64,000 nucleotides of DNA from Candidatus Palauibacter sp. (GTDB lineage Bacteria > Gemmatimonadota > Gemmatimonadetes > Palauibacterales > Palauibacteraceae). Location of the stretch: the NCBI RefSeq assembly GCF_965237495.1, contig NZ_OZ250143.1, positions 515,918 through 579,917 of the forward strand. Reading direction: 5' to 3'. Numbering within the stretch: position 1 is the stretch's first letter; each line of letters begins with the position of its first letter. Of the stretch, positions 4,660 to 64,000 are shown piece after piece. The notes below the pieces were generated by a model. That model saw only the letters and a list, made by a program, of their open reading frames with translations. It did not search any database and was not told where the DNA came from. Made by a program: the position numbers and the translations under genes.

Positions 4660-6225
4660 CAGCACTCGAGCTGGGCGTCGATGGTCAGCCAGGCGGTCAA
4701 CCGTTCCGTGGCTTACGGTTCGCATCGCTCCGCCATCTTCGCGTCGATCGACGAGGGAGAACAGCCGATCTTTCGTTTTCTCCTCGATGCCAGTTGGGGT
4801 TCACACAATCATGTGGCGGACATGGTGTGGGCCTCGGGCCGCAAGAACGACTCGCGGCTCATCTCGGTATCGCACGAATACATCTTGGTGTACGCCCGTG
4901 ATCGCGAATCCCTCCGTACTCATGGGATCCGTTGGCGACAGCGGAAACCCGGCCTCGACGACATCTACGCCTGCCACAAGAGGCTAAAGCGGCGGCACGG
5001 TGACGACTACGCTGCGATCGAGCGTGACCTGAAGGAGTGGTTCCGCAGCCTACCGGGCTCCCATCCGGCCCGAAGGCAGAAACACTACAACCGCGTGGAC
5101 GCACGCGGCGTTTATTTCCCCGACAACATTTCGTGGCCGGGGACCGGCGGTCCGCGGTACGACGTGATCCATCCCGTGACGGAAAAGCCGACAAAGGTGC
5201 CAGCGGCAGGGTGGCGACTCAAAGAGGAAACGATGAAGCGGTGGATTGCGGAGGATCGGATCCATTTCGGCGAGGATGAACACAGCGTGCCCAAACGGAA
5301 GTCGTATCTGCGCGAGCACGAGCACGAGGTACCGTATAGCGTGTTCTACCAGGATGGCCGCGCCGCCACGAAGCGGCTACGTGCCGTGTTGGGTACGGAC
5401 GACGTGAGCTACCCGAAGGACGAGACCGTCATAGCGGAGTGCATTGAAATGGCGGCGGGCGCGGGAAGCACGATTCTCGACTACTTCGCCGGATCTGGTA
5501 CGACCGGCCATGCCGCGATCAACCTCAATCGTGAGGACGGGGGACGACGCAAGTTCATTCTGGTGGAGATGGGACACCGGTTCGACACCGAGATCATGCC
5601 GCGGCTCAAGAAGGTGGCGTTCTCCCCGGAGTGGCGGAACGGGGCCGCGAAGCGGGAGGCCACGGCGGAGGAGTCCGAGCGCGGCCCGCGGATCATCAAG
5701 TACTTCCGTCTGGAGAGCTACGAGGACGCGCTGAACAACATCGAGTTCGAGGAGGTGGAGGAGAGCCTGTTCGAGCTGGAGGACTACCTGCTGCGCTACA
5801 TGCTCCAGTGGGAGACCAAGGCGAGCGCGACCCTGCTCAACGTCGCGGCGTTCGCGCGGCCGTTCGACTACAAGCTGCGGCTGGGCGGGAACGGTGATGG
5901 CGCGGACGAGACCGTGGATCTCGCCGAGACGTTCAACTACCTGCTCGGCCTAAAGGTGCATGCGCGCCGGACATACGACGACGACGGGCGCCGCTATCTG
6001 GTCTACGCGGGGGAGACGTGGGACGGCAGCTCTGCGGTTATCATCTGGCGCGACACGGAGGGATGGACGGCGGAGGACCGGGAGCGGGACCGGGATTTCG
6101 TGGCGAGGCACGACATGACGGCGGGTGCCGACGAGATCTGGATGAACGGGGACTCCATGGTAAAGGACGCGCGGCCGCTGGACGCGCTATTCAAACAGCG
6201 CATGTTCGCGTCCGCAGACGGCTGA
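4660..6225 (+). pseudogene. mod: Type III-like DNA methyltransferase (mod), C-terminal fragment with AdoMet motif I
   Basis: YQHSSWASMV follows the DPPY motif once the IS is excised. Motif I is TILDYFAGSGTTGHAAINL. The stop TGA at 6223-6225 overlaps the res ATG. Confidence 0.75.
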
Positions 6226-9200
6226 TGACCCCCGGCCGCCCCGGCACCATGCTCCGCCGCCTCGAGGCGGAACTCCTGCTGTTGGGCTGGGCGAACCGGC
6301 AGTTCGGGTTCGAGACCAACCAAGCGCTCTTTGACGCCTTGAAGGATGCTCACGAGGGGTACGAGGACGGCCGCAGCCATGTCGCGCGCATGCTTCTGAG
6401 CCGGGAGCGCCTGATGGTTCCCGCGGACGACCTGGCCCGCTACGACGACAACGTGCGCCGCCATCTCGACTCCATAAACAAGGGACGGCGCGAGCCCATC
6501 ACCCTGCGGTATTTCCAGCAACTCGCGGCGCTGTACGCGGAACTCTTCTTGGCCCGGCGCGCTGCGTCCCCCGAAGCCCTCGCACGGCAGCTCCACCGGT
6601 ACGTCCGGGAGAAGGTCCACGGCCTGGGCACCTCCTACCCGGTGCGGGAGATCACTCCGGACGACCTGAACAAGCTCGCGTTCTGGATGGCGACGGGGAG
6701 CGGCAAGACGCTCATCATGCACCTCAACTACCTCCAGTTCCTGCACTACGGCGGGGCGGAGGGCCTGGACAACATCATCCTCATCACGCCCAACGAGGGG
6801 CTGAGCGCCCAGCACATGGAGGAAATGACCACGTCCGGCATCCCGTCGGCGCGTCTCGGCGAGGCCGGGCTGCTGGCGGGCGGCCGCTGCACCGTGCGGG
6901 TGACCGAGATCACCAAGCTTGTCGACAAGCGCCGCGGAAAGGGGACGGGTGTCAGCATCGAGGTCGAGGCGTTCGGCGACCGCAACCTCGTGTTCGTGGA
7001 CGAGGGCCACCGGGGCGCGAGCGGGGAGGCGTGGCGAGCGGTGCGCGACGCCGTGGCCGCGCGCGGCTTCACCTTCGAGTACAGCGCCACCTTCGGGCAG
7101 GCGCTGGCGGCGGCGCGCGACAACCAACTCACCCTCGACTACGGCAAGTCGATCCTCTTCGACTATTCGTACCCGTATTTTCACCGGGACGGGTTCGGCA
7201 AGGACTTCCGCGTCCTCAACGTGTCCGGCAAGGACCCGCCGCCAGAGCTGGCCGACCACCTCCTTTTCGGCAACCTCCTCTCCTTCTACGAGCAGCTCCG
7301 CGCCTATCGCGAGAACGCCGCCGAGCTGCGCGCCTACAATCTGGAGCAGCCGCTGTGGGTGTTCGTCGGCAAGAGTGTGAACGCGGTCTATAGACGTCGC
7401 GGGCGTGACACGAGCGACGTGCTCGCCGTGCAACTCTTCCTCCACCGCGTGCTCAACGAGCCCGACTGGGCGCGGGAGACGATCGGGAAGCTGCTGCGCG
7501 GCGAGTCGGGGCTGTACGCGGCGTGGAACGTGGACCTGTTTGCGGACCGCTTCAACGAGTTGGCGAAGCTCGGGGAGTCCCCGGATCGGATCTACGCCGA
7601 CATCCTCCGCACCGTGTTCCACGCCGATGGCCCCGGCGGGCTGCGCCTGTGCGACATCCGGGGCGCGCCCGGCGAACTCGGCCTCAAGGCGTCCGGGTCG
7701 GACGACTACTTCGGCCTCACCTACATCGGAGACACGGCGAAGTTCAAGCGGCTGGCACGGGAGGCAGAGGCGGGGATCATCTTCGAGGAGGACGCGGTCG
7801 GCGGCTCGATGTTCGGCCGGGTCAACGAGGCCGGGGCCACGGTCAACGTCCTCATCGGCGCCAAGAAGTTCGTCGAGGGCTGGAACTCATGGCGCGTGTC
7901 GAACATGGGCCTCATGAAGGTGGGACAGGCGGAGGGCTCCGAGATCATCCAGCTCTTCGGCCGCGGCGTGCGGCTCAAGGGCAGGGGGATGTCCCTCAAG
8001 CGGAGCACCTATCTGGAGGGTCCGCACCCGGACAAGGTGGGGCTCCTGGAGACGCTCAACATCTTCGCCGTGCGCGCCGACTACATGAAGAAGTTCCGGA
8101 CCTATCTGGAGCGCGAGGGACTCGAGGCGCGGGACAGCGTGACGCTGCGCGTGCCAGTCCGGGCCAACGAGGAGTTCCTGGGCCGGGGGCTCGTGGTTCC
8201 GGCCCTCCCGGAAGGAACCGACTTCGAGACGGAGGCGAACTTCGCGCTCGGTGCCGGCGCCGGGCTTCCGGTGCAGATCGACCGCGCCACGCGGGCCTCC
8301 TCGTGGGAGAGCGGTGCCCGCGGTCAGTCGGCGACGGAGGGAACGGCCGGGCACAGCCGTCCCGCCTCGGAGCTGCCGCTGGCGCTGGTGGATTGGGAAA
8401 GGGCGTACCTCGACCTCATGGAACACCGGCGGCAGAAGGGGATGCGGCCGCTGGCCGTCCCCGGGCCCGACGCGCTTCGGTCGCTCGTCGAGAGCGGGGC
8501 CGCCACGGTGTCGGCCGACGAGCATGTGTTCGAGCCCCGCAACTGGCACGACCGGGAGGACCTGCAAGCGATCGTGCACGCGGTGCTCCGGCGAACCGCG
8601 GACCGGTGCTGGCAGACCGAGCGGCGGACGTGGGAGGCCGAGCGCATGAAGTACCGCGAGGTGGACGCCGCCGATCCCAACCTTCTGCTGAACGTCGACC
8701 CCGAGGCGGCCAGCGCCTGGCCCGGCGGCCCCCAGCCTCACTATGTGGTTAGCGTCCCGCACGCCGACGCCGGTCTTCGCAACGAGCTCGTGGAACTCAT
8801 CGAACAGCGGGGCAAGCTCTACGAGCAGGAACTCGGCCCGCTCGCCCGCATCCACTTCGACCGCCACCTGTACCAGCCGCTGCTGATCGAGTCCTCGAAC
8901 GCCGACGTGAGGATCTCCCCGCCGCCGCTCAACGAGAGCGAAAAGCGGTTCGTCCGCGATCTCCGCGATTGGTGGGTGGACCGGGGCAGCGCCCTTCACC
9001 CCGGTGCGGAACTGTTTCTGCTCCGAAACCAGGGCCGGGGCTGCGGCGTGGGCTTCTCACTCGAGGGCCGCGGCTTCTACCCGGATTTCATCCTGTGGCT
9101 CATCGAGGGAGGCCACCAACGCGTCGTGTTCGTCGAACCGCACGGCATGCTCCACGCCCGCGCCTACGCCGAGGACGAAAAGGCCCGCCTACACGAGCGC

Positions 9201-12078: not shown

Positions 12079-12292
12079 ACGGGCCTCGATCTCCTCGTGG
12101 TCCTGCTCGTGGTCCTGCTCGCGGTCGTCGTGGGGCAGGGGATCCTACGCCGCCGGCTCCGAACCACAAAGCCGGGCCGGGGGAAGGGCCGCGCCTGCTG
12201 TGCGTGGCTGCGTGGGGTTTGCTAGGTTACCCCGGCACCATGGTGCGGCTGGCGGGTATGAAACTTGGTCTTACGGTCCTCGCGTTCCACGC

Positions 12293-13535: not shown

Positions 13536-14897
13536 TCAAGCTGCGCATTCTCGGTCGCTTTCCGGGTTGGCCACCCGCAGGGACGGCCGCCAGAAACGCA
13601 ACGTGGGGAATCCAAAGGCGTCCGTCTCGTACGAAAACAACAGGCCGCCGTCCACCGCCCCGAAGCCATCCGTGAAGTTCGCGGCCGCAAGGATGCGACC
13701 CGCGCCGGGATCCAACACCTCGATACGCTGCTCGTAGAGCGAGCAATTCTCGCGGCGCGTGTACTCTCCCGCCTCGGGGTGCAATCCCGGCGGGGTCTCC
13801 ACAAGGCAGTCCGCCCAGTTGGCCGCCGCCACCGAGATCATTACCCACAGCCGATCTCGGGAATCGCTCGTCATGTATCTGATCCCCGGCGAGCCGGGCT
13901 GGTCGGGGTGCAACTCCCTGCGCGGGGAGTTCGGCGGGAACCATTCGACCTCCCGGACCAGCGAGCGCAGGCGCGTCCCCGCCGCCGCGTCCCACAGATC
14001 GATCCGGTATTCCTCCGGCGACACCGACCAGACCTCGCCGCTGCGGGCGGCGGGCGTGATCGATCGAAAGGGTGACGGGGCGCCGGGCACCCCGACCGGC
14101 ACCTCGTCGAACGAGCGGACCACGTCACCCTCACCATTCATGAGGTGGAGGACGTACCCCACCCGGTCCGCGGCGTACATCGTGGCGTTGATCACATACG
14201 AGGAATCGTCGAGAACGACGGCGTCGTTCTCGAGTGTACCCGGCGAAAGGGGGTTCGTGTGCAACACCTCGAAGTCCGTCGCATCCAGCACGGTTCGGCG
14301 CCTGTTCAAGGCGTCAAAGACGTGCAGGCGGTCTCCGTGGGCGCGCACCCACCGAATCCACCGGTACTCGCCCGGCCCCTCGCCACCTCGTCCCACCCAG
14401 CGGCCGCCGGGGACATCCGCGGAGGCCACCAAGAAACGCTCGGGCCGTAGTTGCTCCGTGATCGCGAGGCGCCCGCCGGGCAGAGCCTCCACGTCGTAGG
14501 CGTTGGACACCCAGTTCTCGTCGTCCCACCCGCCGCCCCTGAACACCGGGCCGGGCTCCAGCTCGATCTCGCACGGCGGCTGCGGATCCTCCCGCAGCAC
14601 CGTGGGCTGCTGGGCCTGCACCGCCCGGGACGTAGCCACCAGAAGCGCGACGGCCAATAGCGTTCGGCAAGCGGCCTCAACGGCCGTCTGGGAGCGGCCG
14701 TGCAGGGCTACATGTCCCGGCGGCGAGGGGAGCGCGGACGACGCTCCGCGGGGGCCTTCACGGCGCAAGGTGTGAACCGGCACCGGCGGCGACCGCAGCG
14801 AGGAATTCCGGAGTGGCGAGGTGCCGGAGCGGAATGTGGACGGCAACGGTTCCCTGGGTGCATCCCCGAACTTGGATGGCCATGCGTTCGGTCGCAA
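13536..14897 (-). CDS. Secreted beta-propeller-like protein; start uncertain
   Basis: Signal-peptide-like LLAVALLVATSRAVQAQQ. Repetitive W/G-rich blades over 453 aa. The first ATG at 14897 would overlap the upstream gene by 140 nt, so an internal non-ATG start near 14650-14710 is likely. Confidence 0.5.
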   Translation of the reverse strand: MRPNAWPSKFGDAPREPLPSTFRSGTSPLRNSSLRSPPVPVHTLRREGPRGASSALPSPPGHVALHGRSQTAVEAACRTLLAVALLVATSRAVQAQQPTVLREDPQPPCEIELEPGPVFRGGGWDDENWVSNAYDVEALPGGRLAITEQLRPERFLVASADVPGGRWVGRGGEGPGEYRWIRWVRAHGDRLHVFDALNRRRTVLDATDFEVLHTNPLSPGTLENDAVVLDDSSYVINATMYAADRVGYVLHLMNGEGDVVRSFDEVPVGVPGAPSPFRSITPAARSGEVWSVSPEEYRIDLWDAAAGTRLRSLVREVEWFPPNSPRRELHPDQPGSPGIRYMTSDSRDRLWVMISVAAANWADCLVETPPGLHPEAGEYTRRENCSLYEQRIEVLDPGAGRILAAANFTDGFGAVDGGLLFSYETDAFGFPTLRFWRPSLRVANPESDRECAA

Positions 14898-15306
14898 AGT
14901 AAAACGGCGACTTCTCGGGCTGGCCGCGGATGATTCGGTACACCTCCAAGGCGTCGCCGGCCGACACCGCCGCCAAGACTGTCTTCAGCACACCTGCGTC
15001 GTACAGGATCCCGTCGATGCCGCCGCCCCGGCACCCGGGGGGGTGCTTCTCCGTGCAGCCCTTCGGGTATGGAACGCGCGGGTGTACTCCGTCTTTCCGC
15101 TTGTAGTACCCGTCGTTGTGGACAGGAGTCACTGCGGTATGGCACTCAGACAGATCATCGGGGTCTGGATTGCAATAGAAGGTGAGACAGTCCACACAGG
15201 AATCTTCGTCCTGCGCCGCCACCGGTTTGGGATCGACCGCCCCCGCCAACAGGACGGCTCCGACAAGCAGGAACGTGAAGTGATGAAGGGATTTGAGGTT
15301 AAACAC
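14758..15306 (-). CDS. Secreted Cys-rich hypothetical protein
   Basis: Signal peptide MFNLKSLHHFTFLLVGAVLLAGAV. Cys cluster DSCVDCLTFYCNPDPDDLSECH. GTG start at 15306 with a GGGAGG SD 5 nt upstream. Confidence 0.5.
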   Translation of the reverse strand: MFNLKSLHHFTFLLVGAVLLAGAVDPKPVAAQDEDSCVDCLTFYCNPDPDDLSECHTAVTPVHNDGYYKRKDGVHPRVPYPKGCTEKHPPGCRGGGIDGILYDAGVLKTVLAAVSAGDALEVYRIIRGQPEKSPFYFATERMAIQVRGCTQGTVAVHIPLRHLATPEFLAAVAAGAGSHLAP

Positions 15307-15330
15307 GTTGGCCTCCCGGGTCTTGAGGGG

Positions 15331-15408
15331 GGGACTCGCTCCCGGGACTCGCTCCCGGGACTCGCTCCCGGGACTCGCTCCCGGGACTCGCTCCCGGGAC
15401 TCGCTCCC
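15331..15408. repeat. Perfect tandem repeat, 6 copies of 13-bp unit GGGACTCGCTCCC
   Basis: Counted directly from the sequence: six contiguous identical units. The array lies 25 nt upstream of the GTG start of the 14758-15306 gene. Each unit has GGGA/TCCC complementary ends. Confidence 0.9.
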
Positions 15409-15616
15409 ACAATTACGCGTGTTCTTTGGCGGTCCGCAAGAGGCGTCCCGCTCTCACTGCGTCGTACTGTCGCACGTCCTCTTACGGTCCATGTACGGTA
15501 TGAATCCGGCGAACAAGATCCGGGAGACGAACCGGCGGACTCGCTTCGGCCCGACCGGATCACTCCCACCGACCGGTAGGCAGCCCCGACCGGTGGGCTG
15601 CCGTCGGTCCCGGGGC

Positions 15617-16060
15617 CTAGAGGAACGAGGGGTCGAACCCGTCCGAGGTCTCTCGCCGCTCCTCCGGCCGGACGAGGGTGAGGATCGCCCCCTGGGGTGC
15701 CACGAGATACCGGGTGCCCTCGAACGTGATCTCGACCGCCGCTTTCCGGAAGAAGAGGGCGTAGTCGCCCGGCCGTGCCTGCATGGGAAGGTAGCGCGCC
15801 TCGGTTGCGCCGATCTTCCACGGTTCATCGCCCAGTTCCGCGGGCGGCCCCACCGGCGTGCCGGGTCCGACCGCCACCACCGTGCCCGCCTGCACGGCCT
15901 GCTTGTCGATCGCGGTGGGAGGAAGATAGAGACCGACGTTGGTGCGCTCCTCGCCCTCCAGCGGTTCGATGAGCACACGGTCGCCGACGACGATGAGTCT
16001 CTTCTCGCTCAAGGCTTCCTTCCTGCAGGCGTTACTTCGGGGCTGGGGGTGACGGCGCAT
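15617..16060 (-). CDS. GroES/Cpn10-family protein
   Basis: KRLIVVGDRVLIEP...AGTVVAVGPG...GDYALFFRKAAVEITFEGTRYLVAPQGAILTLV aligns with the GroES fold, including mobile-loop and roof elements. ATG at 16060. Confidence 0.6.
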   Translation of the reverse strand: MRRHPQPRSNACRKEALSEKRLIVVGDRVLIEPLEGEERTNVGLYLPPTAIDKQAVQAGTVVAVGPGTPVGPPAELGDEPWKIGATEARYLPMQARPGDYALFFRKAAVEITFEGTRYLVAPQGAILTLVRPEERRETSDGFDPSFL

Positions 16061-16112
16061 CGTCACGATCCCCGCCGGACGATAGGGTGCCCCGGCATCC
16101 CCGGACAGGCTC

Positions 16113-17237
16113 TCAGCCGGTCGAGGTCCCGTCGGTCGCGTCGGGTTCGAGGCGCGAACGCTCCCCCTCGATGAAGCTCTCGGCGCTTTCCGGGACGAAC
16201 AGGTTGTCGGCGATGCGGGCGATCTCCTCCGCCTCCCGCCACCGGGCCTCGAGTTCCTTGAGTTCTCCCTCGAGCGCCTCGCGCTCGGCCTGCTCGTGCG
16301 TAGCCATCTCGATCGCCAGCCGCACATCCACCTTGAGGCCCGCCAGCGTCCCGGGCAGGGGTTTCGAGAGTGCCTCGATTTTCTTTGCCGAGAGGCCTGG
16401 CCGCCGGCGCCCGGAGAAGTCGCGCTGCGCGAGATCGGCAGCTTGTGGGAGAAACGCCTCGGGGTGGCCGGCCTCCTCGATTCGGGCCACCGCCGCGCGG
16501 ACCGTCTTGCGCCCGCCACCGCTCCGGTTCGCGTGTGCCATGAGTTGCCCGGCCAGGCCGATGGCCTCGCTGCCGTGAACGATCATCGTATGTCGCCGGT
16601 CCTTCTGCTTACGTGTCCTCAGCGACTTGTCCCAGCCCGGGATGTGATCGACGCTGAGATCCCATCCCGAGGCGTCGGCGCTCGGGACCAGGCGTGACGT
16701 GTAGAGGTGTTTTCGCTGGATCCGGATCGGGTCTTCGACCTCGTTCCTGAGACGGAGGATCACGCGATCTTGATACCACTGCTGGATCAGGCTCGGGATG
16801 CTCGAGAAGGCCGCAATCAGCGAGAAGCCCGTCACCATGCTCCCGGCGACAAAGGCCCCGGTCGCGGTCGCGCCCGCGCCGGTGATGAGCATGGCCCGGC
16901 GGCGTCGGCGGCCGAACTGGTCGCCGTAGCGCCATGCCGCGAACTCCTGGCGGACAGGGTCTCCCACGCGTACGAGTTCGAGCCCCTCTTTCAGCTTGGC
17001 GAGCCCGATGTTGTCCGTGGCGACCCGCATGCGGGTCGTCTCGAAGGCGCGCTCGCAGGCCTCGATCGCCTCCCACCGTGTCTCCAGCGGCGAGAGGTTC
17101 CAGCGCTCGCAGCGCCGGCAGACGACCCAGAGCCGTCCCTTGGCTCCGTCGAAGGCGAGGCGGTGCCCGACCGGGAACTCCTCGATGGCCTCGTTCCGGT
17201 CGAGGTCACCGTGGCAGAAGATGCAGGTCGTGTACAC
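16113..17237 (-). CDS. Zinc-ribbon membrane protein of unknown function (paralog 2 of tandem pair)
   Basis: N-terminal CIFCHG...CRRCERW 4-Cys ribbon, one TM segment and a C-terminal coiled coil, EREALEGELKELEARWREAEEIARIADN. GTG start lies immediately after the stop of paralog 1 (TGAGTG). Confidence 0.6.
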   Translation of the reverse strand: MYTTCIFCHGDLDRNEAIEEFPVGHRLAFDGAKGRLWVVCRRCERWNLSPLETRWEAIEACERAFETTRMRVATDNIGLAKLKEGLELVRVGDPVRQEFAAWRYGDQFGRRRRRAMLITGAGATATGAFVAGSMVTGFSLIAAFSSIPSLIQQWYQDRVILRLRNEVEDPIRIQRKHLYTSRLVPSADASGWDLSVDHIPGWDKSLRTRKQKDRRHTMIVHGSEAIGLAGQLMAHANRSGGGRKTVRAAVARIEEAGHPEAFLPQAADLAQRDFSGRRRPGLSAKKIEALSKPLPGTLAGLKVDVRLAIEMATHEQAEREALEGELKELEARWREAEEIARIADNLFVPESAESFIEGERSRLEPDATDGTSTG

Positions 17238-18329
17238 TCAGACGTTCCGCGACGGGTTCATGGGGTCGACGTCGATGCGCTCGTGCTCGCCGGCGATGAA
17301 GCCGTCAACGCTCTCGGGGACGAGCAGGTTGTCGGCGATGCGTGCGATCTCCTCGGCTTCGCGCCACCGCGCTTCGAGTTCCTTGAGTTCTCCCTCGAGG
17401 GCCTCTCGCTCGGCCTCCTCGTGCGTCGCCATTTCGATCGCCAACCGCGTGCTCTCGCTCATGCCCGCAAGCGTACCGGGCAGAGGTTTCCGCATCCGTT
17501 CGATTTTTCTTGCGGGCGGGTGGTCCTTGGCGGATCGCTGGAAGGCATGCAACGCCATGTCCGCCGCTTCGGGAAGAAACCCCTCGGGGTGGCCAGCGTG
17601 TTCGATCCGGCTCACCGCCCTGCGGATCGCGCTCTCCCTGCCCCCGCGACGGTTGGCTTGTGCCATCAACTGACCCGCGAGCCCGATCGCCTCGCGTCCG
17701 TGGATGATCATCGTCTCCCGCTTGTCCCCCCCGCTCCAGCCCGGAAGGTGATCGACGCGCAGCCCCCATCCACCGCCCTCGCGATCGGGCACGAGACGAG
17801 AGGTGTAAAGGTGTTTCCGGAGGACCCGAACCGGCGCTCCACCCTGATTCCGAGTCCGGAGGACAACGCGCTTGAGGTACCAGGTCTTCGTCAGCCTGGT
17901 CGTCAACCAGAGTGAGCCCAGGGAGAGTACGCCTCCCACAACGAGAGCCCCCGCGGCCGTCGCGGCCGCGCCGGTGATGAGCATGGCCCGCTTGCGGCGC
18001 CGACCGAACTGGTCTCCGTAGCGCCACGCGGCGAACTCCTGCCGGACGGGGTCGCCGACGCGCACGAGTTCGAGGCCCTCCTTGAGCTTCGCGAGGCCGA
18101 TGTTGTCGGAGGCGACCCGCATGCGGGTGGTCTCGAAGGCGCGTTCGCAGGCCTCGATCGCTTCCCACCGCGTCTCCAGCGGCGAGAGGTTCCAGCGCTC
18201 GCAGCGCCGACACACGACCCAGAGGCGTCCCCGCGAGCCGTCGAATGCGAGGCGGCGACCGACCGGGAACTCCTCGATGGCCTCGTTCCGGTAGAGGTCG
18301 CCGTGGCAGAAGATGCACGTCGTATACAT
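17238..18329 (-). CDS. Zinc-ribbon membrane protein of unknown function (paralog 1 of tandem pair)
   Basis: Same architecture as 16113-17237 and ~70% identical by eye. ATG at 18329 (MYTTCIFCHGDL). Confidence 0.6.
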   Translation of the reverse strand: MYTTCIFCHGDLYRNEAIEEFPVGRRLAFDGSRGRLWVVCRRCERWNLSPLETRWEAIEACERAFETTRMRVASDNIGLAKLKEGLELVRVGDPVRQEFAAWRYGDQFGRRRKRAMLITGAAATAAGALVVGGVLSLGSLWLTTRLTKTWYLKRVVLRTRNQGGAPVRVLRKHLYTSRLVPDREGGGWGLRVDHLPGWSGGDKRETMIIHGREAIGLAGQLMAQANRRGGRESAIRRAVSRIEHAGHPEGFLPEAADMALHAFQRSAKDHPPARKIERMRKPLPGTLAGMSESTRLAIEMATHEEAEREALEGELKELEARWREAEEIARIADNLLVPESVDGFIAGEHERIDVDPMNPSRNV

Positions 18330-18516
18330 TCGTCTCTCGATCCTCACCGCTGGACGCGTCGGCTGCGTAGCCGACGGCCCCCGCGTCGCCGTCCAATGTC
18401 GCTACGTGGCCCGGCCGGGGATACCCGCCACGGGCGTCACTTCATCGTCCGGCCCCGCAGTGATGGCCGCTCGGCTGTCTTCCCTCCGGCTGCGGGTTTC
18501 ATATGCAGAGTTGCGA

Positions 18517-61299: not shown

Positions 61300-61621
61300 G
61301 TGACGAGCGGATGGCTCGCCTCGTGGGGCGCGGCCTGCGGCGACGACGGCGGCGAAGTCACGGGTCCCCGCGAGACGCCGAACCAGAGTCCCGTCGCGGT
61401 CGGCGAGATCGAGGCGCAGACCGCTTTCCTCGGCGATACCGTCGCGGTGGACGTGTCGAGTGCGTTCCGGGATCCCGACGGCGACCCCCTCACCTTCATG
61501 GCCGCCTCCTCGGACCCGTCGGTCGTCGGCACCTCCGTTTCGGGGAGTCGGGTCTGGCGTGTCGCGGGGCAGCGCGACCGTGACCGTGACGGCGCGCGAC
61601 CCTGACGGCGCGCGACCCTGA
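61300..61621 (+). pseudogene. Degenerate 5' region and first repeat of the surface-protein gene, with a frame change near 61550 and a 16-bp tandem duplication
   Basis: The first repeat reads in frame 1 up to SVSGS, and in frame 2 from SRGSATVTVTARDPDG onward. The tandem GGCGCGCGACCCTGAC x2 at 61588-61619 introduces a TGA. Deleting one copy rejoins this region to the downstream frame. Confidence 0.45.
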
Positions 61622-61673
61622 CGGCGCCGAGGCCCGCCAGAGTTTCAGCGTCGAGGTTCCGAACCGGGGTCCG

Positions 61674-64000
61674 ATGGCCGTGGGGCAGATCCAGCCGCGG
61701 ACGATATTCCTCGGCGGGACCGCGACGGTGGACGCGTCCCCGGCCTTCAGCGATCCGGACGGCGACGAACTCAGCTTCGCCGCGGCCTCGTCGGACACGG
61801 CATCGGTGCTGGCGTCGGTCTCGGGCAGCGAAGTAACGCTGGAGGCGTTGAAGCGCGGGACCGCGATGGTGACGGTGACCGCGCGGGATGCGGACAGCCT
61901 CGAGGCCACCCTGAGCTTTGAAGTCACGGTCCCCAACCGGCCGCCAGCCGCCGTGGGCGAGATCGAGGCGCAGACGATATTCCTCGGCGAGACGGCGACG
62001 GTGGACGCGTCCCGGGCCTTCAGCGATCCGGACGGCGACGAGCTCAGCTTCGCCGCGGCCTCGTCGGACCCGGCATCGGTGCTGGCGTCGGTCTCGGGTA
62101 GCGAAGTAACGCTGGAAGCGCTGAAGCGCGGGACCGCGATGGTGACGGTGACCGCGCGGGATGCGGACAGCCTCGAGGCCACCCTGAGCTTTGAAGTCAC
62201 CGTCCCCAACCGGCCGCCAGCCGTCGTGGGCGAGATCGAGGTGCAGACGATATTCCTCGGCGGGACCGCGACGGTGGACGCGTCCGCCGCTTTCGGCGAT
62301 CCCGATGGCGACCCGCTCACCTTCGAGGCATCCTCGTCGGACACGGCTGTGGTCCGCGCCTCGTCTTCGGGCAGCGAGATGACGCTGGAAGGCCTGGGCC
62401 GCGGTGACGCGACGGTGAGCGTGACAGCCCGCGACACGCACGGCGGCGAGGTCGACCAGAGTTTCGAGGTGGCGGTGCCCAATCGGCCGCCCGCGGCGAC
62501 CGGCGAACTCCCGCCGCAAACACTGCTTCCCGGCGAGACGGTCACGGTGGACGTATCCACGGCGTTCAGTGATCCGGACGGAGATTCGCTCGCCTTCGAG
62601 GCGACCTCCTCGAACTTGGGGGTGCTCGGCGTCTCTCTCGCCGACCGCGTCGGCGAGGTCACGCTCGAAGGCGTGGCGCGGGGAACGGCAACCGTGTCAG
62701 TCACGGCGCGCGACCCGGACGGCGCCGAGGCTGGCCAACGCTTCGAGGTCACGGTCCGGAACCGGAATCCCGTGGTCGTGAGCGACCTTCCTCCCCGGAC
62801 GTTGCTCCCGGGCCAAACTGTGACGGTCGATGTGGCGGGGGTGTTCCGCGATCCCGATGGCGACCCGCTCACCTTCGAGGCATCGTCGTCGGATACGGAA
62901 GTGGCCGCTGTCTCCGCCATCGCCAGCGAGGTGACGGTGCGGGGCGTCTCGAAGGGCACCGCGACGGTAACGGTGACGGCCCGGGACGACCACGGAGGCG
63001 ACGTGCGGCAGAGCTTCAGCGTAAAAGTCCCGAACGGGCGGCCGGTCATCAGCGGAGCGATTCCGGCGCAGACCGTGGAGGAGGGCGCGACGACGACCGT
63101 GGATGTCGCTTCCTACTTCAGCGATCCGGACGGCGATGCCCTCGATTTCGGCGCTTCGTCGTCCAACGCAGCGGTGGCCGATGTGTCCACGTCAGGGAGC
63201 GGCGTGACCATCGAAGGGGTGACCGCCGGGTCCGCGTCCGTCACGGTCGCCGCGCGAGATCCGGACGGCGGCGAGGCACGTCAGAGCTTCGGCGTGACGG
63301 TGAGGCCGCCGCCCCCACCCAACCAGAGGCCGGTGGTGTCGAGCGCGATCCCGGCGCAGACCGTGCGGGAGAACGTGAGCGTCTCGGTGGATCTGGACGG
63401 CCACTTCCGCGACCCGGAAGGCGGCGCGCTGGACTACGGCGCGGCGAGTTCCAACGAAGGCGTGGCGACGGCGGACATTTCCGGCAGCGACGTGGTGGTG
63501 GGAGGGGTGCGTGAGGGGACGGCCACGGTGACGGTGACGGCGACGGATCCCGGAGGCCTGAGCGCCGACCAGGAGTTCGGCGTGACGGTGAGGCCGCCGC
63601 CCCCACCCAACCAGAGGCCGGTGGTGTCGAGCGCGATCCCGGCGCAGACCGTGCGGGAGAACGCGAGCGTCTCGGTGGATCTGGACGGCCACTTCCGCGA
63701 CCCGGAAGGCGGCGCGCTGGACTACGGCGCGACGAGTTCCGACGAAGGCGTGGCGACGGCGGACATTTCCGGCAGCGACGTGGTGGTGGGAGGGGTGCGT
63801 GAGGGGACGGCCACGGTGACGGTGACGGCGACGGATCCCGGAGGCCTGAGCGCCGACCAGGAGTTCGGCGTGACGGTGAGGCCGCCGCCCCCACCCAACC
63901 AGAGGCCGGTGGTGTCGAGCGCGATCCCGGCGCAGACCGTGCGGGAGAACGCGAGCATCTCGGTGGATCTGGACGGCCACTTCCGCGATCCGGAAGGCGG
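61674..64000 (+). CDS. Very large repeat-rich surface protein with tandem cadherin-like/Ig-like (dystroglycan-type) domains; partial, continues beyond the window
   Basis: At least 9 tandem ~91-99 aa repeats with the pattern ...P.QT...G.T.TVD.S.AF.DPDGD.L.F.A.SSD..V..VS.SGS.VT.......G.ATVTVTA.D.DG......F.V.V.N..P. The open frame from 61620 runs to the window edge. The ORF track does not report it because no stop codon falls within the window. Confidence 0.7.
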   Translation, partial: MAVGQIQPRTIFLGGTATVDASPAFSDPDGDELSFAAASSDTASVLASVSGSEVTLEALKRGTAMVTVTARDADSLEATLSFEVTVPNRPPAAVGEIEAQTIFLGETATVDASRAFSDPDGDELSFAAASSDPASVLASVSGSEVTLEALKRGTAMVTVTARDADSLEATLSFEVTVPNRPPAVVGEIEVQTIFLGGTATVDASAAFGDPDGDPLTFEASSSDTAVVRASSSGSEMTLEGLGRGDATVSVTARDTHGGEVDQSFEVAVPNRPPAATGELPPQTLLPGETVTVDVSTAFSDPDGDSLAFEATSSNLGVLGVSLADRVGEVTLEGVARGTATVSVTARDPDGAEAGQRFEVTVRNRNPVVVSDLPPRTLLPGQTVTVDVAGVFRDPDGDPLTFEASSSDTEVAAVSAIASEVTVRGVSKGTATVTVTARDDHGGDVRQSFSVKVPNGRPVISGAIPAQTVEEGATTTVDVASYFSDPDGDALDFGASSSNAAVADVSTSGSGVTIEGVTAGSASVTVAARDPDGGEARQSFGVTVRPPPPPNQRPVVSSAIPAQTVRENVSVSVDLDGHFRDPEGGALDYGAASSNEGVATADISGSDVVVGGVREGTATVTVTATDPGGLSADQEFGVTVRPPPPPNQRPVVSSAIPAQTVRENASVSVDLDGHFRDPEGGALDYGATSSDEGVATADISGSDVVVGGVREGTATVTVTATDPGGLSADQEFGVTVRPPPPPNQRPVVSSAIPAQTVRENASISVDLDGHFRDPEG

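Follow-up and report, generated by a model that had tools for sequence, protein, structure and literature searches.

A slippage-prone tandem repeat that may sequester the Shine-Dalgarno sequence in leaders of Candidatus Palauibacter genes for Cys-rich, secreted-looking proteins

Introduction

What can a perfect array of short tandem units do directly in front of a gene? This question is raised by a locus of Candidatus Palauibacter in which six 13-bp units precede a gene with a secreted-looking product. The stretch of DNA that carries it was analyzed at its full length of 64,000 nucleotides and is called the window below. An earlier note on this DNA expected the copy number of the units to change by slippage and thereby to alter promoter or leader spacing, which could create an on/off or graded switch. 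A 4-bp hairpin in each unit and an iteron-like binding array were considered there as well. How short tandem repeats of bacteria act at the RNA level is poorly understood, as stated in a 2025 study of the hmw repeats (PMC12721329).

The reading preferred here, which is given about an even chance of being correct, is that the array is a transcribed, slippage-prone leader repeat that sequesters the Shine-Dalgarno (SD) sequence and is common to a small set of operons for Cys-rich, secreted-looking proteins.

Results

A perfect 13-bp array downstream of a promoter-like motif

Tandem Repeats Finder (TRF) identified the array as a repeat with a period of 13 bp, 6.0 copies, 100% matches and a score of 156, and it was the top short-period array of the 64-kb window. 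The perfect six-fold repeat described in the earlier note was thus recovered, and the raw sequence agrees with the plus-strand consensus GGGACTCGCTCCC. The end of the array had been placed correctly in that note, whereas its start is at 15331 and not at 15328, as three extra G residues lie outside the units. The downstream gene sits on the minus strand, which the note had left unstated, and the sense unit therefore reads GGGAGCGAGTCCC. In sense order the region is TAATTG-t-(GGGAGCGAGTCCC)x6-ccccTCAAGA-CCCGGGAGG-ccaac-GTG (Table 1). The good SD described in the note is present as GGGAGG at 15312-15317 on the minus strand, and the distance from the array end to the GTG start (15306) is 24 nt instead of 25 nt. 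The 13-mer has no other match in the 64-kb window when up to 2 mismatches are allowed. An independent ENA contig (L001), which encodes an identical protein, also contains 6 units, and five further assemblies, those of a sister lineage, agree with one another on 4 units; therefore the array is not an assembly artefact.

Table 1. Features of the array locus (window coordinates, sorted by position).
Feature	Position	Strand	Basis
Partner gene, 415 aa (as called on L001) or 361 aa from a later start	13536..14783	-	overlaps 3' end of array gene
Array gene, ORF of 182 aa, GTG start	14758..15306	-	ORF list
Hypervariable patch, mature Cys-rich N-domain of array gene	15032..15210	-	strain alignment, protein alignment
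GTG start codon of array gene	15304..15306	-	ORF; orthologues share start position
SD block CCCGGGAGG, sixth CCCGGG core fused to Shine-Dalgarno GGGAGG	15312..15320	-	sequence
Non-conserved spacer ccccTCAAGA	15321..15330	-	sequence; differs between loci
Tandem array, 6 perfect GGGAGCGAGTCCC units, 5 junction palindromes TCCCGGGA	15331..15408	-	TRF, sequence, palindrome count
Inferred -10 hexamer TAATTG, 18-nt spacer	15410..15415	-	promoter-like motif
Inferred -35 hexamer TTGCGG	15434..15439	-	promoter-like motif
GC-rich hairpin GGCAGCCC-loop-GGGCTGCC directly after stop codon of upstream Cpn10-like gene	15579..15602	-	sequence

In the intergenic region, a generic sigma-70 scan gave no consensus site and a terminator scan gave no terminator. 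In 16 of 19 leaders, a promoter-like motif, TTGNNN-N16-18-TANNNN, could be identified that ends 2-15 nt ahead of the first CCCGGG, and judged from this position the array would form the extreme 5' end of the mRNA. In the window the array begins 2 nt downstream of the inferred -10 hexamer, and the transcript would therefore start in or at the first unit. With the array in this place, a change in copy number cannot alter the spacing between -35 and -10. Of the spacing effects that had been proposed for the array, only a change in the length or folding of the 5' leader is retained.

The GC-rich hairpin behind the upstream gene was reported by TRF as a 17-nt x2 repeat. It is without a T-run, and the terminator scan did not detect it; from its sequence and position, it is a likely transcript end, which would set the array gene apart from the upstream gene. 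With Rfam 15, no match at the gathering threshold was obtained in the whole window, and the region 15250-15650 gave chance-level matches only (E of at least 0.17).

The product of the array gene starts with the signal-peptide-like sequence MFNLKSLHHFTFLLVGAVLLAGAVDPKPVAA/Q, followed by ~7 Cys in the next ~60 residues (protein read by eye), and thus looks secreted and Cys-rich, in line with the earlier note. The protein consists of a Cys-rich, variable N-domain and a conserved C-terminal part of ~90 aa. It has no Pfam or NCBIfam match, and its AlphaFold model was poor (pLDDT 46) and unfit for a structure search. Between strains, identity falls to 72-81% in the patch that covers the mature N-domain, compared with 97-100% on both sides. 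The partner gene, which is probably co-transcribed with the array gene, is 99% conserved between strains and has no Pfam match.

Several other candidates for the array were rejected. A coding repeat was ruled out: the strains differ by 26 nt, which is not a multiple of 3, and therefore the array is non-coding; moreover, upstream of the GTG the reading frame of the gene is not open. The ORFs running across the array (14821-15579 and 15293-16174 on the plus strand, 15129-15821 on the minus strand) are of the spurious kind that is frequent in GC-rich DNA. A CRISPR array, with repeats of 23-50 bp and unique spacers, was ruled out, as the 13-bp units are contiguous and have no spacers. Iterons of a replication origin were also ruled out: the loci are chromosomal, lie before secreted-protein genes, occur several times per genome and have no rep gene near them. 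The proposal of an iteron-like binding array thus fails in the sense of a replication origin, and a DNA-binding operator array stays a live rival. Avoidance of CCCGGG through restriction-modification was not seen in the window (58 observed versus ~70 expected sites).

A leader family of Candidatus Palauibacter

A scan for two exact units in one genome per GTDB species yielded 15 loci. Thirteen of these belong to metagenome-assembled genomes of Gemmatimonadota (10 genomes), most of them named Candidatus Palauibacter, and several genomes have more than one array locus. The remaining two flank a single contig break in Paractinoplanes tereljensis, where at least 6 copies of the identical 13-mer follow the stop codon of a gene and the CCCGGGAGG block is missing; this array was treated as an unrelated context. 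From JGI metagenomes, the two-unit pattern retrieved a single contig, which is unrelated, low in GC and carries a ..CCG variant. In the literature, the 13-mer was found in no relevant paper and matched only in two unrelated vertebrate papers.

In total, the array module was collected as 21 distinct leaders (about 30 contigs) from Candidatus Palauibacter. The orientation of the units relative to the downstream gene is identical in all Gemmatimonadota loci, and the order of the module is promoter-like motif, units, short non-conserved spacer, CCCGGGAGG and, 4-6 nt further on, the start codon. The downstream genes fall into four families without BLAST similarity among them: family A (the window type, 182 aa), family B (about 167 aa), family C (325-456 aa) and family D (149 aa). 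All four have hydrophobic, signal-peptide-like N-termini and many Cys. Apart from the family C member L002, which matches Peptidase_M15_3 at its C-terminus, the downstream proteins gave no match in Pfam or NCBIfam. Downstream of each family A or B gene lies a partner gene of about 355-415 aa that is far better conserved, and no link was detected between the partner proteins of the two families.

Selecting part of the sample by two exact units inflates the apparent conservation of the 13-mer. A pattern-independent sample was obtained by a protein search with family B and its partner protein (L024-L026 and L027-L033), and every homologue contig from this search carries the module. Distant homologues of the window protein (L021 and L022, 58-61% identity) have no module and use an ordinary GGAGG. 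The array is best explained as an expanded version of a leader element that is specific to the genus Palauibacter.

In the order description of the Palauibacterales, one genus is described as mostly host-associated and as more abundant in corals and sponges (PMC10469786). The epithets irciniicola and poriticola, given to Palauibacter species, fit such an association (PMC10469786).

The conserved core is a palindrome and not the 13-mer

At each junction between two units, the 8-nt palindrome TCCCGGGA (RNA form UCCCGGGA) is formed, and this is the conserved core of the module. CCCGGG cores are invariant across the four unrelated gene families. The SD block CCCGGGAGG is identical in 20 of the 21 distinct leaders, the exception being CCGGGAGG in L015. 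In every leader, the GGGA of its palindrome provides the first four bases of GGGAGG, so that the register is fixed. In ~200 kb of Palauibacter DNA, CCCGGGAGG was found before a start codon only after arrays and is thus not a general SD.

Minimal and variant leaders narrow the core down further. The minimal leader L024, gtCCCGGGagcgagtCCCGGGAGGtaggcATG, consists of UCCCGGGA-GCGAG-UCCCGGGAGG, and the SD itself is the 3' arm of a single 8-bp hairpin. The variant unit of L025, GGGCGTGAGTCCC, retains the CCCGGG core and lacks GGAG. L032 and L033 contain three copies of an 11-nt unit, TCCCGGGA plus GAT, in which the palindrome is retained and the loop is GAU instead of GCGAG; across the leaders, GCGAG, GAU and GUGAG were found as loops. 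From these leaders, together with the restriction of CCCGGGAGG to positions after arrays, it is concluded that the core consists of the palindrome and its SD-fused final copy and not of the 13-mer. The spacer that separates the SD block from the last palindrome is unrelated in sequence between loci, and its length stays at 14-25 nt. Measured from centre to centre, the last palindrome and the SD block are 13 nt apart in L024; in the other leaders this distance is 20-30 nt, most often 23 nt, and it is 26 nt in the window.

A perfect palindrome suits a dimeric DNA-binding protein equally well as an RNA stem, and the TCCCGGGA sites could be an operator array that binds a dimeric repressor on the initially transcribed region; the repressor would block the transcription of a secreted-protein regulon, and the copy number would set its occupancy. 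Ribbon-helix-helix repressors are known to use tandem operators that consist of short palindromes or heptads and vary in number. The 8-bp palindromes are perfect and invariant, lie at and just after the inferred start site and occur 1-7 times (35 in L012) before several unrelated genes, as in a regulon; the lack of covariation described below is equally compatible with such sites. However, the fusion of the last site to the SD never departs from a single register, at 4-6 nt from the start codon, and a DNA operator would have no need to respect this. Helical phasing is altered both in L032, where the period is 11 instead of 13 bp, and by the last spacing, which varies over 13-30 bp; the C-to-T variants of L002 retain RNA pairing (as G-U) and break the DNA symmetry. 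Also, no conserved regulator gene was seen beside the loci examined. An operator array is therefore regarded as unlikely. A role at the RNA level is favoured over one at the DNA level, because the last palindrome is fixed to the SD in four unrelated families and changes of loop and period are tolerated.

Copy number differs between closely related strains

The number of units ranges from 1 to 36 across loci. When palindromes upstream of the SD block were counted in the 21 leaders, one was found in 3 leaders, three in 12 and four in 2, and single leaders had five (the window), six, seven and 35. The last of these is L012, with a 36-unit array of 468 bp; in it, 33 units are of the variant ..TCCA, which is unable to form the stem. 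A variant unit, ..TCCT, was also found in the array of L002.

The window and L001 have 6 units, compared with 4 in the GTDB species representative (L014) and in contigs of a sister lineage (L017-L020). Over most of a ~6-kb alignment, the window and L018 have 97-100% nucleotide identity, and the difference in units is therefore a polymorphism between closely related strains, which are about 98% identical. As the earlier note had called for, copy number was thus compared between strains, and it is not invariant; the change expected from slippage was seen both in these near-identical strains and across the loci. Differences were also observed between the orthologues L016 and L029 (7 versus 3 palindromes), between the paralogues L007 and L016 of one genome (2 versus 6 units) and between L004 and L008, whose proteins are 85% identical (3 versus 4 palindromes). 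Within each sampled lineage, as represented by consensus contigs, copy number was constant, including three contigs of sample ERZ25074053 that all have 4 units.

In the preferred reading, extra copies beyond the common state of three palindromes may be nearly neutral. A separate alternative is that the array is a functionless minisatellite, a slippage-prone sequence that was inherited with a promoter-leader cassette and is tolerated. L012 tolerates 36 units of which most are unable to pair, copy number has little predicted effect on folding (see below), and an identical 13-mer array occurs in the unrelated Paractinoplanes context. Furthermore, a 55-nt block upstream is common to three leaders of different gene families, which suggests that the cassette spread by descent. 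Against this, the palindrome cores and the SD block stay invariant while spacers, loops and downstream proteins (30-60% identity) diverge, and every leader, the minimal ones included, keeps at least one palindrome upstream of the SD block. That module-free distant homologues of the window gene use an ordinary GGAGG likewise speaks against a mere passenger. The absence of any function is considered improbable.

Predicted folding of the leader RNA

The relevant structure is not the 4-bp hairpin within each unit that had been suggested, but an 8-bp stem formed between neighbouring junction palindromes (UCCCGGGA), together with pairing between a junction and the SD block CCCGGGAGG. The hairpin UCCCGGGA-GCGAG-UCCCGGGA was predicted at -15.3 kcal/mol and its 11-nt variant at -14.0 kcal/mol. 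For the window leader, a rod was predicted in which 8-bp helices alternate with small internal loops. Pairing of the last palindrome (UCCCGGG) with CCCGGGA of the SD block was predicted in the MFE or centroid structure of most leaders; in the window, the spacer and the 3' part of the last unit would then form the ~20-nt loop of this modeled hairpin. When all units were deleted in silico (window, L017 and L015), the probability that the SD is unpaired was 0.67-0.99, compared with about 0.2 with units.

Several results limit how much weight these predictions carry. When 45-75 nt of coding sequence were added to the window mRNA, the SD paired with the coding region and not with the array, and the z-score of the whole-leader fold was only -2.0. 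Covariation was analyzed for 15 proposed pairs in 11 distinct leaders: 13 pairs never vary and 2 have one unpaired cell, no compensatory change was found at any of the 15, and the score was 0. As all proposed pairs are invariant, there is no covariation, and the RNA model is without evolutionary proof.

Copy number itself could be read by such a structure. In this alternative, slippage by one unit decides whether the SD block finds a free palindrome as partner, so that expression is toggled ON or OFF; in its strongest version, an odd number of palindromes hides the SD and an even number frees it, and the Palauibacter regulon would have a heritable, reversible parity switch based on RNA folding. 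Copy number does differ between close strains and paralogues, and the downstream proteins are hypervariable and secreted-looking in a host-associated bacterium. Counts of upstream palindromes are mostly odd (1, 1, 1, twelve times 3, 5, 7 and 35; even only 4, 4 and 6), and for odd counts the last palindrome is often predicted to be paired with the SD block. However, the odd excess is largely one inherited state (3), and the expanded arrays (4, 4, 5, 6, 7 and 35) have no preference. In an in silico series of 0-9 units, SD accessibility alternated slightly from 1 unit upwards (e.g., 0.05 versus 0.16), in a direction that depended on the leader, and at equilibrium the SD was mostly paired at any copy number once at least one unit was present. 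The presence of the first palindrome in the RNA is uncertain, and the contigs within a lineage, including the three from a single sample, do not vary. Toggling by parity, in the general as in the strongest version, is therefore held to be quite improbable. The on/off or graded switch of the earlier note finds no backing either: copy number is constant within lineages, with no sign of fast switching, and its predicted effect on folding is little once a unit is present.

Repeated identical motifs in leaders are typical of RNAs that titrate proteins, such as the targets of CsrA or TRAP. The repeated hairpins or motifs could be a platform for a trans-acting factor, which would be a small RNA, an RNA-binding protein or, at standby or SD-like GGGAG sites, the 30S subunit. 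GGGAG is present in each canonical unit, and a similar proposal was made for the TAACTGA repeats of Beggiatoaceae (PMC4679880). On the other hand, GGA or GGGAG lies in the predicted stem and not in a loop, the units of L025 are without GGAG, and the loop sequence is not conserved. No sequence complementary to the array was found elsewhere in the 64-kb window, and no candidate factor was identified. Such a platform is considered very improbable.

Discussion

A possible mechanism for the leader repeat

If the SD is indeed sequestered by the leader repeat, the functional core would be the 8-nt palindrome UCCCGGGA and not the 13-mer; it would be repeated downstream of the promoter, with the last copy fused to the SD as CCCGGGAGG. 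The array would be transcribed as the extreme 5' end of the mRNA, and adjacent palindromes would pair in vivo to 8-bp GC-rich stems with 3-5-nt loops. Pairing of one palindrome with the SD block would enclose the ribosome-binding site in a stem, and the 5' end would lie buried inside a rod. Translation of the operons for Cys-rich, secreted-looking proteins would then be low or conditional. The array structure may also stabilize the mRNA or serve as a substrate of RNase III.

Since the palindromic stem arms are at the same time direct repeats 13 nt apart, replication slippage would readily add or remove units. A single SD hairpin as in L024 already amounts to 1.6 copies of a tandem repeat and could therefore be expanded in this way. 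Slippage would explain why the copies are perfect and why their number varies among strains, paralogues and genes. It would likewise explain how variant units, ..TCCT in L002 and ..TCCA in L012, have spread through an array.

One 8-nt palindrome thus appears to fill three roles, as hairpin arm, anti-SD and slippage substrate. As the anti-SD palindrome is both a hairpin arm and a direct repeat, the translational operator itself would be expandable by slippage. A single leader module might thereby control a small Palauibacter regulon, made up of operons for hypervariable, secreted-looking, Cys-rich proteins. With this element, a case is added from a lineage of Gemmatimonadota that is uncultured and mostly associated with corals and sponges, and the element marks otherwise unannotated operons for hypervariable, secreted-looking proteins, which are plausible factors of interaction with hosts or competitors. 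The signature CCCGGG ... CCCGGGAGG-start could be used to locate such genes in symbiont genomes. Should the array prove to be no more than an ordinary SD hairpin whose expansion is tolerated, the finding would be a modest one.

Comparison with known systems

In the classical contingency loci of Neisseria, Haemophilus and Helicobacter, simple-sequence repeats lie in the promoter spacer or in the reading frame. The Palauibacter array resembles them as a slippage-prone tandem repeat at the gene of a variable exported protein in a host-associated bacterium. In contrast to these loci, the repeat lies outside both the -35/-10 spacer and the reading frame, between the inferred -10 and the SD of ORF 14758-15306. 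In addition, no hypervariability at the population level was seen among the Palauibacter consensus contigs.

The TAACTGA direct repeats of marine Beggiatoaceae lie upstream of start codons, and a post-transcriptional role was proposed for them from sequence alone (PMC4679880). They are likewise lineage-restricted short direct repeats in leaders, with 2 to 6 copies per set and longer sets in some taxa (PMC4679880). However, they are non-palindromic heptamers that occur in 169 sets per genome without a link to a gene class (PMC4679880). The Palauibacter element is present at few loci per genome, all examined ones precede genes for Cys-rich proteins whose N-termini are signal-peptide-like, and its palindrome is matched to the SD.

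Tandem ribbon-helix-helix operators are exemplified by the met-boxes of MetJ, AGACGTCT in 2-5 copies, and by the heptads of the omega repressor. Short palindromic or heptad sites are arranged head-to-tail, in variable number and near the promoters of several operons, as in Palauibacter. The met-boxes are contiguous, have an 8-bp period and lie over the promoter, whereas the Palauibacter sites have a period of 13 or 11 bp and lie downstream of the -10, with the last one fused to the SD and no cognate repressor found at the loci.

Leader hairpins that sequester the SD are known from the ROSE and fourU RNA thermometers and from the rpoS leader, which is opened by DsrA or RprA. In Palauibacter, an upstream anti-SD segment is likewise complementary to the ribosome-binding site and is predicted to form a stem with it. 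The known elements are single-copy, not tandem and not prone to changes in copy number. Compared with an RNA thermometer, the Palauibacter stem, with 7-8 GC-rich pairs and about -15 kcal/mol, is far too stable.

By analogy, the closest precedent that was studied experimentally would be the 5'-UTR repeat of the hmw genes of Haemophilus influenzae. The (ATCTTTC)n repeat of hmw1A is transcribed, forms a long 5'-UTR hairpin that is processed by RNase III and tunes expression (PMC12721329). RNase III processing, an effect on expression and fast switching were demonstrated for hmw. The unit has 7 nt in hmw and 13 (or 11) nt in Palauibacter; the hmw repeat pairs with a separate G-rich arm, and the junction palindrome of Palauibacter would pair with itself and with the SD block. 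The Palauibacter element is, moreover, common to several unrelated genes. Like the repeats of hmw1A and hmw2A, it is a short tandem repeat that follows the promoter and precedes the start codon of a gene whose surface or secreted product is variable; in both systems, copy number differs between strains, and the Palauibacter array is predicted to fold into a comparable rod.

Variation of the array and its leader

The largest array was found in locus L012 of another assembly (NZ_OZ244149.1, 5674-6141), where 36 units (468 bp) lie directly upstream of a gene of family B, a Cys-rich family unrelated to that of the window. Most of these units (33 of 36) correspond to the variant GGAGCGAGTCCAG, with which the palindrome stem cannot be formed, and canonical units are confined to the final two positions. 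The genome from which L012 was obtained is also the source of L014, a sister-lineage locus of the window gene.

In loci L030 and L031 the leader module is retained ∼400 nt 5' of the partner gene and consists of three palindromes and one decayed unit. No gene was called for the small family-B protein, and ATT is present at the position of the ATG of its relatives. This family-B gene is probably a pseudogene of which the leader has survived.

A conserved block of ∼55 nt, AAACCGGACATGTTACGTGCTACCGAAGCGGACAACTTCATTTGCTCCCTACAC, was identified immediately 5' of the promoter-like motif in the leaders of L013, L015 and L025, which belong to three different gene families in different genomes. Farther 5' of the block no similarity was observed among these three loci, and the block is not present in the window. 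It may mark the border of a promoter-leader cassette or serve as a site for a regulator.

Coordinates of conserved blocks and genes
Feature	Locus	Position	Strand
55-nt block	L013	∼6360-6415	
55-nt block	L015	∼5180-5240	-
55-nt block	L025	∼495-550	
Family-C array-bearing gene	L002	3471-4841	-
Family-C array-bearing gene	L008	1197-2414	-
Tandem paralogous gene, 374 aa	window	16113-17237	-
Tandem paralogous gene, 369 aa	window	17238-18347	-
Large repetitive surface-type protein	window	61590-64000, continues past window end	+

Genes downstream of the arrays

Nucleotide comparison between strains revealed a sharp hypervariable patch within the array gene of the window (15032-15210, - strand). The region encoding the mature Cys-rich N-domain is 72-81% identical between strains, both flanks are 97-100% identical, and the C-terminal 90 aa of the protein are identical or nearly so, a pattern that suggests diversifying selection or recombination. 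Another local dip in identity, to 71-83% relative to the sister-lineage contig L018, extends over 16019-16198, across the point where the 374-aa gene meets its Cpn10-like neighbour.

Because the family-C protein of L002 carries a C-terminal Peptidase_M15_3 domain (zinc D-Ala-D-Ala carboxypeptidase-like), its sequence suggests a secreted cell-wall hydrolase. The family-C protein of L008 gave no Pfam match.

Surroundings of the array and other repeats

In L017, a sister-lineage contig that carries the window gene, a DDE_Tnp_1 (IS5-type) transposase gene (1300-2718) is inserted at a CTAG that directly follows the stop codon of the Cpn10-like gene. The insertion site lies ∼230 nt 5' of the array, and in L014 the sequence 5' of this CTAG differs too.

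The tandem 374-aa and 369-aa paralogues share nearly identical N-termini that are Cys-rich and zinc-ribbon-like (MYTTCIFCHGDL...CRRCERWNL), and neither has a Pfam match. At 12094-12126 of the window (- strand), 2.8 copies of the 12-nt repeat GACCACGAGCAG directly precede, in frame, the called TTG start of a bipA/typA-like GTPase gene. They are part of the leader or, if translation begins at an unrecognised start, encode an N-terminal DHEQ repeat. The 273-bp and 288-bp tandem repeats of the window are due to the gene of the surface-type protein, which contains Big_9, Big_2, He_PIG and cadherin-like domains; the 288-bp copies are 98% identical.

The identical 13-mer in an actinomycete

At least six copies of the identical 13-mer were found in the actinomycete Paractinoplanes tereljensis (L005, 823-900; L009, 8-85), and no SD block accompanies them at either locus. 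This array is located at a contig break, 3' of the stop codon of a gene; other short tandem repeats come after it.
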